The notes: a model not told the origin generated them from the letters alone. 64,000 nt of DNA from Candidatus Latescibacterota bacterium (GCA_965223905.1 CBDCXV010000002.1:1-64000); one strand, 5' to 3'; positions 965-64,000 are shown, counted from the stretch's first letter. Numbers and translations: made by a program.

Positions 965-1235
965 TCATCTGATCAGGGTCATCTTGCCCACCAGGGCGCG
1001 GTCGGCGGCGACCAGCCGGTAGAGGTAGACGCCGGTGCCCTGGGAGCGGCCCTGATCGTCGCGTCCGTCCCAGAAAACGGTGTGGGTCCCCGCCTCCCGG
1101 AAGCTTGGAAGCAGCAGCGTCGTCACGACCTGTCCGTAGAGGTTGTATACCACCAGGGAGACCTCGGCGGGCGCCGGCAGCTCGAACCGGATCGCGGTGC
1201 TGGGATTGAAGGGGTTGGGCTCAACCCCCGCGGTG
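965..1235 (-). other. C-terminal FlgD-Ig / T9SS type-A-like sorting domain (only copy in the window)
   Basis: EPNPFNPSTAIRFELP...VSLVVYNLYGQVV...GTHTVFWDGRDDQG...GVYLYRL...KMTLIR*. Confidence 0.9.
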
Positions 1236-4200
1236 AAGGTTCCCCCGTTACTCCTCGCCCCCGCCCGGGTGTAGCCTGTGGCCGAGGAAGACCAGCCACT
1301 GTTCCCTGCGGCGTTGCGGGCGCGCACCTGCACGGTGTATTGGGTGTTGGCGGTGAGCCCGGTCAGGCTGGTGCGGGTGGTGGTGCCGCCGCTGACCGAT
1401 TGGGAGGACCAGATCTGGTAGCTGTTGCAGAACGAGACCTCGTTGGTCTTGCAGTACCGGACATGGTAGCCGGTCAGGTCCGAGCCCCCGTTGTCGTCCG
1501 GGGGCGTCCAGGTCACCTCCAGCGACTGTAAGCCGGTCGTTCTCACCGACACCCCGGTGGGCGGATCCGGTGCCTCGGCCGGGGTCGCCGAGCGGCTGGC
1601 CGCCGAACCGTAGCCGATCCCGTTCTTGGCCCGCACCTCGAACGTATACGACGTGCCGTTGCTCAGACTCGACACCGTGCGGCTGCGCGCCGACGCCCCC
1701 CCCGACACCGTCGACCAACCCGACCAGGTATGGCCGCTGGTGCTGCTGTAGCGCGTCTGGTACCGCTCGATGGCCGACCCGTTCGAAGACGCCGCGTTCC
1801 AACTCAACGACACCTGCCCATTGCCCGAAGAGGCCGAAAAGCTTCCCGGCGTGCCCGGAGTCCCCGCCGGGGTCGCCGAGCGGCTGGCGGCCGAACCGTA
1901 GCCCACCCCGTTCTTGGCCCGCACCTCGAACGTATACGACGTGCCGTTGCTCAGACTCGACACCGTGCGGCTGCTGGCCGAAGAACCCCCCGACACCGTC
2001 GACCAGCTCGACCAGGAATAGCCGCCGGTGTTGCTGTAGCGCGTCTGGTACCGCTCGATGGCCGACCCGTTCGAAGACGCCGCGTTCCAACTCAACGACA
2101 CCTGCCCGTTGCCCGAAGAGGCCGAAAAGCTTCCCGGCGTGCCCGGATTCCCCGCCGGGGTCGCCGAGCGGCTGGCGGCCGAACCGTAGCCCACCCCGTT
2201 CTTGGCCCGCACCTCGAACGTATACGACGTGCCGTTGCTCAGACTCGACACCGTGCGGCTGCTGGCCGACGAGCCCCCCGGCACCGTCGACCAGCTCGAC
2301 CAGGAATAGCCGCCGGTGTTGCTGTAGCGCGTCTGGTACCGCTCGATGGCCGACCCGTTCGAAGACGCCGCGTTCCAACTCAACGACACCTGCCCGTTGC
2401 CCGAAGAGGCCGAAAAGCTTCCCGGCGTGCCCGGATTCCCCGCCGGGGTCGCCGAGCGGCTGGCGGCCGAACCGTAGCCCACCCCGTTCTTGGCCCGCAC
2501 CTCGAACGTATACGAGGTGCCGTTGCTCAGACTCGACACCGTGCGGCTGCTGGCCGACGAGCCCCCCGACACCGTCGACCAGCTCGACCAGGAATAGCCG
2601 CCGGTGTTGCTGTAGCGCGTCTGGTACCGCTCGATGGCCGACCCGTTCGAAGACGCCGCGCTCCAGCTCAACGACACCTGCCCATTGCCCGAAGAGGCCG
2701 AAAAGCTTCCCGGCGTGCCCGGATTCCCCGCCGGGGTCGCCGAGCGGCTGGCGACCGAACCGTAGCCCACCCCGTTCTTGGCCCGCACCTCGAACGTATA
2801 CGACGTGCCGTTGCTCAGACCCGTCACCGTGCGGCTGCTGGCCGAAGAACCCCCCGACACCGTCGACCAGCTCGACCAGGAATAGCCGCCGGTGCTGCTG
2901 TAGCGCGTCTGGTACCGCTCGATGGCCGACCCGTTCGAAGACGCCGCGTTCCAACTCAACCGACACCTGCCCGTTGCCCGAAGAGGCCGAAAAGCTTCCC
3001 GGCGTGCCCGGAGCCCCCGCCGGGGTCGCCGAGCGGCTGGCCGCCGAACCGTAGCCCACCCCGTTCTTGGCCCGCACCTCGAACGTATACGACGTGCCGT
3101 TGCTCAGACTCGACACCGTGCGGCTGCTGGCCGAAGAACCCCCCGACACCGTCGACCAGCTCGACCAGGAATAGCCGCCGGTGTTGCTGTAGCGCGTCTG
3201 GTACCGCTCGATGGCCGACCCGTTCGAAGACGCCGCGTTCCAACTCAACGACACCTGCCCGTTGCCCGAAGAGGCCGAAAAGCTTCCCGGCGTGCCCGGA
3301 GCCCCCGCCGGGGTCGCCGAGCGGCTGGCCGCCGAACCGTAGCCCACCCCGTTCTTGGCCCGCACCTCGAACGTATACGACGTGCCGTTGCTCAGACTCG
3401 ACACCGTGCGGGTGCGCGCCGACGAGCCCCCCGGCACCGTCGACCAGCTCGACCAGGAATAGCCGCCGGTGTTGCTGTAGCGCGTCTGGTACCGCTCGAT
3501 GGCCGACCCGTTCGAAGACGCCGCGTTCCAACTCAACGACACCTGCCCGTTGCCCGAAGAGGCCGAAAAGCTTCCCGGCGTGCCCGGATTCCCCGCCGGG
3601 GTCGCCGAGCGGCTGGCCGCCGAGCCGTAGCCCACCCCGTTCTTGGCCCGCACCTCGAACGTATACGACGTGCCGTTGCTCAGACTCGACACCGTGCGGG
3701 TGCGCGCCGACGAGCCCCCCGGCACCGTCGACCAGCTCGACCAGGAATAGCCGCCGGTGTTGCTGTAGCGCGTCTGGTACCGCTCGATGGCCGACCCGTT
3801 CGAAGACGCCGCGTTCCAGCTCAACGTCACCTGACCGTTGCCCCGGGAGGACCCGAAGCTACCCGGCGTGCCCGGAGCCCCCGCCGGGGTCGCCGAGCGG
3901 CTGGACGACGAGCCGTAGCCGATCCCGTTCTTGGCCCGCACCTCGAACGTATACGACGTGCCGTTGCTCAGACTCGACACCGTGCGGGTGCGCGCCGACG
4001 AGCCCCCCGGCACCGTCGACCAGCTCGACCAGGTATGGCCGCTGGTGGTCTTGTAGCGCGTCTGGTACCGCTCGATGGCCGACCCGTTCGCCGACGCCGC
4101 GCTCCAGCTCAGGCTCACCTGACCGTTGCCCCTCGTGGCCGAAAAATCCGGCGGATCCGGTTCCCCCGCCGGGGTCGCCGAGCGGCTGGCGGCCGAACCG

Positions 4201-62988: not shown

Positions 62989-63510
62989 TCGGACGAGATC
63001 ATACCTTCGCCCACGGAAAGCCGCTCGTGCGCGGTACAAGGCGGGTGAGCCCATATGCGTGCCAGAGACGCTCGTCCGGGAATCGCACGTGGTTCCCGGT
63101 CGCCACCTTGTGCTTACGACACAGCCACTGGCGCAAACCGCCGGGTCGCGTGCCGGTCCACCGCGGCGTAGGCCGGGCTCACTTGGCCCAGGATGAAGTA
63201 GTTCGCCCACCCGGTCATGAGCCGGTTGAGGCGACCTACCACCACCTCCGGGGCCAGCAGTCCGGACCCTCGCGCGGTCAGCTCGCTGAGCCGGCGGCAG
63301 AGGCTTTGGACGCTCGCCGCGCTCGGGCGCGTGCCCAGGTAGGCCCGACCCGTGTCCCGGCGATAAGTGCGTCCGATCCGGTAGCCGAGGAACTCCATCG
63401 CCTCCTCCGGCACCCGGTAGCATCGGGTCTTCTCGGTGTTCATCGGCAGCCTCAGTTGCGCCATGAGCCGCTCGACCGCCGCCCGCATCGTGGCCGACGG
63501 GGCTTGGCCG
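62844..63510 (-). mobile_element. 5'-truncated group II intron: end of RT + maturase (frameshifted), ribozyme domains V-VI
   Basis: LRLPMNTEKTR...EFLGY...RLNRLMTGWANYF; an extra T near 63136 breaks RRLRQWLCRKHK...PWAKV* (stop at 62999). No YADD region or 5' ribozyme is present. Confidence 0.92.
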
Positions 63511-64000
63511 GTAAAAGCATTCTGGTTTTCTTTATTCCGTTTTCTCTCATAAGACTTAGGAGGCTCAAATCCATCGGTCGTGGGATTGGTGTGTGGAGTA
63601 AACCGTGTGTACGAGCTGCCATCCCACAGGTCCGTAGCGTCCAGATCGCCAAACCACTTGACGGGGCCAAGCCGTCATAGTAACTCCCGGGCGTTGTGTC
63701 TGTCCTCCAGCGATGCGAATTCTGCCGATTCGCCACCAGGAAGTACTCCGGCCCGTCCTCCGAAATCGGAATCTTGTAGGCTCTCGGCGAAGAAGGCGAA
63801 GAAGCATTAATATCCTCGATTTCGGCTATATCCAGGTCGGAAGTCACGGTAACCGGATCGATCCACCTCACATGTGCCCGCGACCAGACTGAGAAGGGAT
63901 TCGGGCCGGTACTCACCTCATCCTTTGCCGGGTCTGGATGTGGCCAGCCTGTAGCACCACCCATGACCCCCCAGTTGCCAATTCCGCCAGATTCAATGTC
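63510..64000 (-). pseudogene. Remnant of a second M6-type protease head (5' part outside the window)
   Basis: GIGNWGVMGG, NPFSVWSR...WIDP, EYFLVANRQ, GLAIW; then an apparent deletion/frameshift at about 63641 to DLWDG...FTPHTNPTTDGF...QNAFTG, joined to the intron fragment. Confidence 0.8.

Follow-up and report, generated by a model that had tools for sequence, protein, structure and literature searches.

A mosaic array of head-and-stalk genes with a single type IX-type C-terminal domain in Candidatus Latescibacterota

Why would a bacterium carry a row of giant, related genes when only the last of them ends in a C-terminal domain (CTD) of the type IX secretion system (T9SS) type? This question is raised by the 64 kb at the start of contig C2 in a Candidatus Latescibacterota genome (GCA_965223905.1, CBDCXV010000002.1:1-64000), hereafter the window. 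The host genome, here G000, comprises 7.9 Mb in 11 contigs with 64% GC. The window holds genes which encode an N-terminal head on a long, repetitive stalk, accompanied by upstream partner genes. An earlier note on this DNA had read the locus as an archive of interchangeable heads, stored upstream of one complete stalk onto which a crossover could place them. We favour, with middling confidence, a recombination-driven birth-and-death family of modular T9SS cargo genes.

Anatomy of the array

All large genes in the window lie on the minus strand, in agreement with the co-oriented array described before. They form cassettes, each composed of partner gene(s) and a head gene. Eight or nine are present, rather than the ten or so initially counted, and one of them is a headless stalk fragment. 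Besides gene A, which bears the CTD, there are indeed six long head genes (B, C, D, E, F and G), but their heads are not all intact, as an insertion sequence (IS) element of the ISKra4 family splits that of G. The head genes and their parts are the following.

965..14756, minus strand: gene A, with a Nep1-like (NLP-like) head, a beta-helix-like segment, a Calx-beta/FN3/Ig-like stalk, two arrays and the CTD
~13377-14666: head of gene A
4475-6330: array of 318-bp units in gene A, 5.9 copies
1578-4440: array of 288-bp FN3 units in gene A, 9.9 copies
968-1297: CTD of gene A
15885..21653, minus strand: gene B, 1922 aa, NLP-like head and proximal stalk, no CTD; stops ~10 codons into an Ig-like repeat
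22483..30048, minus strand: gene C, 2521 aa, a chimera, no CTD
31716..35324, minus strand: gene D, 1202 aa, NLP-like head and short stalk, no CTD
36407..37727, minus strand: headless stalk fragment, 83% identical to 8475-9264 of gene A
39814..46128, minus strand: gene E, 2104 aa, HExxH metallopeptidase-like head (weak Pfam matches) and FN3/cadherin stalk
48345..51914, minus strand: gene F, 1189 aa, PL14 polysaccharide-lyase head (Pfam E 6e-13) and stalk
53646..58623, minus strand: gene G, PL14 head split by the ISKra4-family element (N-terminal piece 58111-58623), stalk truncated at 53646
~56578-58147: ISKra4-family element inside the head of G, transposase at 56602-58029

The T9SS-type CTD is confined to gene A among the genes of the window. 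Pfam assigns FlgD_ig to it with 34.5 bits against a cut-off of 27, and the CTD portion of the PorU model aligns with C2:1010-1426. Por_Secre_tail is not among the Pfam matches of A, and is present in two relatives of the head family (P0092 and P0114). When the last 110 residues of A are used as a tblastn query (E<=1e-5), 123 CTD-like matches are obtained genome-wide and only one in the window, at 968-1297; none falls in genes B to G. The secretion machinery itself was searched for with profiles of SprA, PorU and PorV. SprA (607.6 bits summed, above cut-off) and PorU (617 bits, cut-off 420) are encoded in G000, and a PorV-like gene adjoining PorU reaches 91 bits, under its cut-off of 250.

That the last gene alone is complete, as had been stated, thus holds for the CTD and fails for the reading frame. 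A +1 frameshift is located at ~2960, within the 288-bp FN3 array, where one unit has an extra base compared with its neighbours. Phase variation via a homopolymer was considered for this position and rejected, the site being a two-base run.

The other head genes stop within domains at scarred junctions, just as the earlier note had described. From the head onward, B, C and D align colinearly with A and end early, B at the equivalent of residue ~1753 of A and D at the equivalent of residue ~1223 of C. Gene C runs through head and stalk to part of the distal FN3 array (24000-24134), where the frame changes and beyond which lies a 94% copy of the middle region of B (22611-23957, corresponding to 18025-19366). 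E is truncated relative to its counterpart in G002, a single-contig genome of the same genus, which continues to a CTD. F ends within a cadherin-like module, and its 25-codon tail is non-homologous, including to the corresponding end in G002. The ends of B to F are not conserved. All five have an ATG start and, as read by eye from the translations, a hydrophobic N-terminus. Lastly, the stop of G overlaps, or is fused to, an N-terminally truncated PD40 gene (52904-53710).

Downstream of A, six-frame translation reveals an orphan remnant of a second T9SS-type CTD.

557..700, minus strand: CTD remnant, translation ending ...LYRLVTNESVQTRKLTLLR at a stop codon; weak tblastn match to the CTD of A over 557-643 (E=1.1)

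This decayed remnant is a relic of an earlier 3' end. Past it lies a convergent gene unrelated to the array, and the contig start is outside the repeats. Because the remnant and then the unrelated gene lie downstream, the array truly ends at A.

Shared stalks and exchanged heads

The cassettes are linked by their stalks. Self-BLAST identifies shared stalk blocks of 1.3-2.4 kb with 90-95% identity (at most 95.4%, over 1851 bp). The kb-scale sharing previously noticed is therefore real, although near-identity, as then worded, is too strong. These blocks connect genes whose heads are only 35-54% identical or unrelated, and the heads fall in more than one family: those of A to D are paralogues (35-54% identity), E shows a weak metallopeptidase signature, and F and G carry a PL14 lyase. 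The peptidase-like E and the PL14 gene F, with unrelated heads, have a 1.3-kb stalk block in common which is 94% identical. Self-BLAST (E<=1e-8, word size 11) found no homology of at least 60 bases at the junctions between partner end and head start.

Heads are also AT-richer than stalks, as had been noticed. The GC content at third codon positions (GC3) is 0.40-0.58 in the heads of A to D, 0.68-0.69 in those of E and F and 0.45-0.67 in the partners of A to D, against 0.71-0.89 in the stalks. Low cassette GC3 could result from import from lower-GC relatives or from GC-biased conversion in the repeats. Heads and partners such as 33975-35324 and 21683-22513 form cassettes with a GC3 of 0.40-0.58, in a genome where stalks reach 0.8-0.9.

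Three other loci of G000 and two of G002 follow the same grammar, namely head genes devoid of a CTD that precede a single gene with one; at the three G000 loci the upstream copies are frequently reduced to fragments. On contig C11 (680-704 kb), four or five peptidase heads, some partial, each follow a gene of the 46125-46805 type (46125-type below), with one CTD at the end. On C10 (1296-1310 kb), an intact PL14 gene with a CTD (1296175-1305834, 3219 aa uninterrupted) stands behind scraps of peptidase heads. On C2 (602-617 kb), a CTD-less open reading frame (ORF) of 1660 aa and two partners accompany a gene whose head is NLP-like and which has both a CTD and a broken frame. In one G002 array, a PL14 head is interrupted by an IS630-like transposase; in the other (C1:263918-275830), the CTD-bearing terminal gene is broken into at least three frames (883, 238 and 2974 aa). 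Frame breaks in these giant genes are either common in nature, or both assemblies err in repeats. Of 30 related loci, 3 have a head ORF that continues without a break into a CTD and 7 have one that continues into a dockerin, while the ORF leaves the fetched stretch in 6 and reaches neither in 14; in 4 of these 14 (L013, L016, L022 and L030), the partner of a next cassette then follows.

The comparison with G002 also records exchange. The stalk of F is 89% identical to that of a G002 gene with an NLP-like head. Furthermore, the 46908-48257 gene and the stalk of E are 92% and 91% identical to their G002 counterparts, and between these ~91% flanks G002 has another metallopeptidase head (26% identity over 110 residues around HExxH) and lacks the 46125-type gene. 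Because the head is replaced between such similar flanks, the sequences show that heads, together with their partners, have historically been shuffled on stalks. Heads are thus interchangeable over evolutionary time, a part of the earlier claim which the E/F block, the stalk of F, the G002 replacement and the chimeric C bear out. At this locus, N-terminal functional domains and the accessory genes specific to them have been exchanged like cassettes on common repeat stalks.

Two further stretches suggest sequence transfer. The segment 30069-36921 (6.9 kb) is duplicated on C11 (G000:C11:2010684-2017666). Since one tract (30069-31928) is 99.2% identical and the remainder 92.5%, recent gene conversion between these distant loci is suggested. 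This part of C11 (2010-2020 kb), which duplicates 30-37 kb of the window, includes a copy of D (D', 2012500-2016108) that is frameshifted over four frames. Similarly, a stretch at 61738-62823 is 98.7% identical to G002, exceeding the ~87-92% of neighbouring orthologous stretches, which suggests a recent exchange between the two lineages. Of mobile-element genes, the window yielded the ISKra4 transposase alone; neither a site-specific recombinase nor a diversity-generating retroelement was found there, in a search that was not exhaustive. Beyond the window, C10 and C11 together carry at least three more copies of the ISKra4-family element, at ~96.6% identity.

By-products, stored modules or working proteins

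A repetitive locus at the end of a contig, in an 11-contig genome and with single-base frameshifts inside GC-rich repeats, might simply be misassembled, full-length genes having been collapsed or mis-joined. We consider this very improbable. The joins were checked in short Logan contigs of 4 public runs, of which X1 is possibly the source sample while X3 and X5 stem from other studies. One X1 contig covers 19788-22644 with zero differences; X3 contigs cover 20235-22179 and 22222-22644; an X5 contig covers 15569-16039 and crosses the end of B. The 3' end of C is crossed by contigs of both X1 and X3. Parts of the window have no cover in X3, X5 and X9, among them head C and, in X3, head A; these gaps carry no weight. 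The joins at the truncations, which the earlier note had named as possible mis-assemblies, are thus supported by contigs, some of them from samples of other studies. Two more points speak against an artefact: the contig begins outside the repeats, in a convergent gene unrelated to the array, and the single-contig G002 has the same grammar. A single base is missing at 22523, in the last codons of C, in X3 and X5; the 3' scar of C is therefore not kept in frame.

In the birth-and-death reading, a unit would comprise accessory gene(s), a head (NLP-like, zinc-peptidase-like or PL14), a GC-rich FN3/Calx-beta/cadherin/Ig stalk and, when complete, a CTD. Homologous and illegitimate recombination among the repeated stalks would move heads onto stalks, and the same process would leave 3'-truncated, CTD-less copies upstream of the copy which retains the distal stalk and the CTD. 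The truncated copies would mainly be by-products at various stages of decay, and donors by accident, via a deletion-type crossover in a shared block. Both the direction and the mechanism of these rearrangements are what we infer from the sequences, and the truncated products would presumably not be exported. Signs of decay include the frameshift in A, the IS-split G and its end fused to a truncated PD40 gene, the headless cassette, the four frames of D', the partial heads on C11, the IS-interrupted PL14 head of G002 and the single-base indels in the 3' scar of C. The T9SS genes and CTD-like matches of G000, the mosaic stalks, the complete copies at other loci and the BadA analogue also speak for this reading. 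We favour birth and death because partners are cut, heads are lost, IS elements have hit, fragments persist, A is out of frame and homology upstream of the heads is absent. Several observations weigh against it. The grammar is regular across the window, three G000 loci and two G002 loci, which is more order than simple decay predicts. The cassettes retain start codons and hydrophobic N-termini, and heads and some partners have a low GC3 that suggests a separate history of the cassettes. Some of the frameshifts may be assembly errors in GC-rich repeats. Finally, the ratio of nonsynonymous to synonymous substitution rates (Ka/Ks) is ~0.3 for D versus D' and 0.29 for the head of F versus the PL14 head of G002; the heads of CTD-less genes thus show purifying selection and were constrained, functional or used, for much of their history. 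On the side of decay, Ka/Ks is ~0.6 in young stalk blocks, against 0.19 in an older block behind the head; either the stalks would be relaxed or one copy per pair neutral.

The same observations could be read as a selected system, a mirror image of known polymorphic ones, in which CTD-less cassettes are archived and a crossover in a stalk block puts a stored head with its partner on the CTD-bearing stalk. We consider this unlikely, even though the crossover of 17000 with 10600 proposed in the earlier note is geometrically feasible and would be in frame: the block offsets between A and B (6387 and 6399) and the start-codon offset (6897) differ by multiples of 3. The recurrent grammar in G000 and G002, the replacement of a head and its adjacent partner between ~91% flanks, the constraint on the heads and the pairing of each head type with its own partner type would all suit an archive. 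Contig joints absent from the G000 assembly, which occur in the same samples, would suit it as well, though their sides span only 20-35 bases and they may come from other strains or organisms. However, because nucleotide homology is lacking upstream of the heads, a head swap is a one-way deletion only, and each switch would irreversibly remove the intervening cassettes. We find no evidence that an archive is maintained for switching: breakpoints are untidy, a partner is truncated, one cassette is headless, IS elements have inserted and head fragments remain, while A, which would be the expression site, is frameshifted and the terminal gene of G002 lies in at least three frames. The cassettes also have their own starts, unlike silent cassettes. 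A joint of an archived head to the terminal stalk of A was not identified in the 4 public runs, a search of low power given the short contigs. Constraint on the heads would equally fit a different proposal, that CTD-less proteins are functional as they stand, as periplasmic enzymes or binders or after being handed to a membrane partner, with one gene using T9SS. It agrees with the intact starts and hydrophobic N-termini, with the four loci where a head gene is followed by the next partner, and with other Latescibacterota that put the same head family on a dockerin tail beside P-type partners (described below). We nevertheless find it doubtful: the 3' ends lie mid-domain and are not conserved (the tail of F versus G002, indels in C between samples), IS insertions are tolerated, and an FN3/cadherin stalk would make little sense in the periplasm.

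Among described systems, the closest analogues would be the orphan arrays of contact-dependent inhibition (CDI) and Rhs systems, with opposite polarity, and the BadA island. In CDI, Rhs and MafB arrays, a complete gene stands beside truncated modules keeping a shared stretch, and recombination can fuse a module to the gene (PMC3150448, PMC3967940, PMC3482391); in polymorphic toxins the toxin domains are invariably C-terminal, as stated in a review (PMC3482391). In our array, likewise, the modules share a stalk piece with the main gene, as a mirror image, and the variable modules have a small neighbour gene. Here, however, the variable part is N-terminal while stalk and CTD are conserved, the neighbour gene lies upstream instead of being an immunity gene immediately downstream, the stored modules keep start codons, the heads include enzymes (PL14, peptidase), and no switching event was seen. 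Silent cassettes of the pilE/pilS or vlsE type have no start and promoter of their own, whereas B to F have an ATG and a hydrophobic N-terminus; the two-sided homology used in gene conversion is also absent from our array.

The repeat-rich BadA island of Bartonella henselae is described as containing a giant gene for a head-stalk-anchor surface protein, adjacent pseudogenes and a 'badA-like domain region' which serves as a recombination 'toolbox'; some strains have the N-terminal part fused to a C-terminal region from downstream, and alleles with frameshifts are known (PMC8859334). Tandem paralogous giant genes with repeated stalk domains and pseudogene neighbours are common to the BadA/Vomp-type islands and our array. 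Nevertheless, secretion is of type Vc there and T9SS here, and the trimeric autotransporter anchor was not found here by Pfam. BadA pseudogenes keep the anchor domain, BadA lacks head-specific partners, and its N-terminal part is described as highly conserved between strains, as opposed to the diverse head families of our array. Gene A and the intact C10 gene have the modular build of common T9SS cargo, in which a signal peptide, a functional domain and Ig/FN3 spacers precede the CTD; the tandem arrays with mostly CTD-less copies depart from it. Literature searches combining T9SS with tandem, truncated or recombining paralogs, or Latescibacter* with type IX secretion, returned no paper.

If the arrays did serve switching, orphan-cassette logic would extend to C-terminally sorted proteins and offer a route for diversifying T9SS cargo. 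A sponge-associated Latescibacterota population could then vary its displayed heads via deletion-type crossovers. To such a mirror-image effector system tied to T9SS, in which enzymatic and toxin-like heads (NLP-like, peptidase, lyase) would be stored and the cognate membrane or periplasmic partner upstream would perhaps be an immunity factor, an inhibitor or an adaptor, we give little credence. One X5 contig joins 23999 to 19406 (side of 126 bases); the gene B of X5 may carry a variant of the block resembling that of C, through gene conversion or from a single ancestral copy.

Head families, partners and neighbouring genes

The heads of A to D escape current family models. At E<=1, Pfam has no family for heads A, B and D, and head C yields only the unrelated crAss_AuxCP (E 0.045). 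Head A, the sole head compared with NCBIfam, matches no family at E<=0.1. The Pfam NPP1 profile (PF05630) is not matched by any of the four. The AlphaFold2 model of the head (mean pLDDT 76, pTM 0.85) retrieves with Foldseek, at ranks 1-10 against the PDB, exclusively NLP structures (E 5.9e-5 to 5e-3; TM 0.36-0.44 on target length). The sole sequence-profile match in the PDB is also an NLP: in the 3st1 alignment, HRHDWE stands opposite the HEGDW of the family (E=0.037). The family motif N..H-E-G-D-W has invariant H187, E188, D190 and W191 in 29 sequences, and the second H of HRHDWE is replaced by G. The conserved heptapeptide of NLPs is GHRHDWE. On the basis of the model, the core of heads A to D is predicted to have the NLP fold, a likeness of fold that falls short of family membership. 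Compared with NLP cytolysins, the domain has about double the size, lacks an NPP1 match and is attached to a giant stalk.

A profile search with the head family collects 1839 representatives at E<=1e-3, in proteins of ~130 to >7000 residues, where the domain is mostly N-terminal and occasionally internal. The best relatives of a profile of the four main heads occur in metagenome-assembled genomes of Candidatus Latescibacterota. A scan of metagenome contigs with head B found no relative. In an uncultured phylum, the locus uncovers a sizeable unannotated head family with a predicted NLP-like fold, along with membrane partners whose family has no annotation either.

The partner and accessory genes of the window are listed below.

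14810..15787, minus strand: P-type partner of A (likely start 15709), with a signal/transmembrane helix, a beta domain of Sm/SH3-like type, then four hydrophobic helices and, at the C-terminus, a beta hairpin whose last residue is F
21683..22513, minus strand: second-type partner, with a lipobox-like N-terminus, a related beta domain and a beta-rich C-terminal half
30086..31690, minus strand: P-type partner, 534 aa, beta domain duplicated; protein 100% identical to the C11 copy
35334..36371, minus strand: partner, 345 aa, P-type beta domain and beta-rich C-terminal half
37956..38975, minus strand: P-type partner, 339 aa
46125-46805 and 46908-48257, minus strand: two accessory genes upstream of E
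51960-52907, minus strand: PD40 beta-propeller partner
52904-53710, minus strand: N-terminally truncated PD40 copy
58668..61460, minus strand: three tandem PD40 partner genes
61964..62821, minus strand: P-type partner with no head gene after it; DNA 98.7% identical to G002

In the order of transcription, the array starts with the P-type partner 61964-62821, the three PD40 genes, G, the truncated and the whole PD40 genes, and F. Its middle consists of the accessory genes 46908-48257 and 46125-46805, E, a Calx-beta scrap, the partner 37956-38975 and the headless fragment. It closes with four pairs: partner 35334-36371 and D, partner 30086-31690 and C, partner 21683-22513 and B, partner 14810-15787 and A.

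P-type partners are labelled 'hypothetical' everywhere. In the predicted structure, an N-terminal helix leads into a small beta domain of Sm/SH3-like type, followed by a disordered linker and four hydrophobic helices; a hairpin closes the chain. A fold search with the partner returned no match at E<=0.001, and its beta domain has a weak likeness to Sm/SH3-like barrels. No Pfam or NCBIfam family was found for the partners tested, the 46125 and 46908 genes or the small ORFs at 62881-64000; for the partner 61964-62821, the only match is COX14 (E 0.44).

Partner type tracks head type. In 15 of the 30 related loci, the 650 bp upstream of an NLP-like head contain the end of a P-type gene. PD40 genes precede PL14 heads in the window, on C10 and in G002, and 46125-type genes precede and adjoin peptidase heads on C11 and C10. 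Homologues of the partner 21683-22513 lie upstream of heads in the loci L002 and L003; those of 46908-48257 are partial on C10 and fuller in G002. In other Latescibacterota, NLP-like heads occur in dockerin-ended proteins and the P-type genes come after these in repeated pairs, so that the partner may serve either neighbour. A predicted complex between head A and the beta domain of its upstream partner scored 0.00, which is evidence neither way. The dockerin-ended proteins belong to lower-GC Latescibacterota (L005 12597-20882; L008, L010 and L012), where small Ig-plus-dockerin proteins alternate in tandem pairs with P-type partners or with another small gene family. These pairs may represent a pairing of cargo and anchor.

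The region also holds a warning for annotation. On the strand opposite the genes, GC-rich repeats produce spurious ORFs of great length, for instance 2922-10271 (plus strand, 2449 aa), which trap gene callers, and the giant genes themselves are often frameshifted. At the contig start lies the convergent gene mentioned above.

3-470, plus strand: gene fragment with an HPDH motif

It may be a deacetylase of the PIG-L/LmbE type, a likeness which no tool confirmed. The first 504 bases of the window have a 96.7% identical copy on C1 (1699870-1700375).

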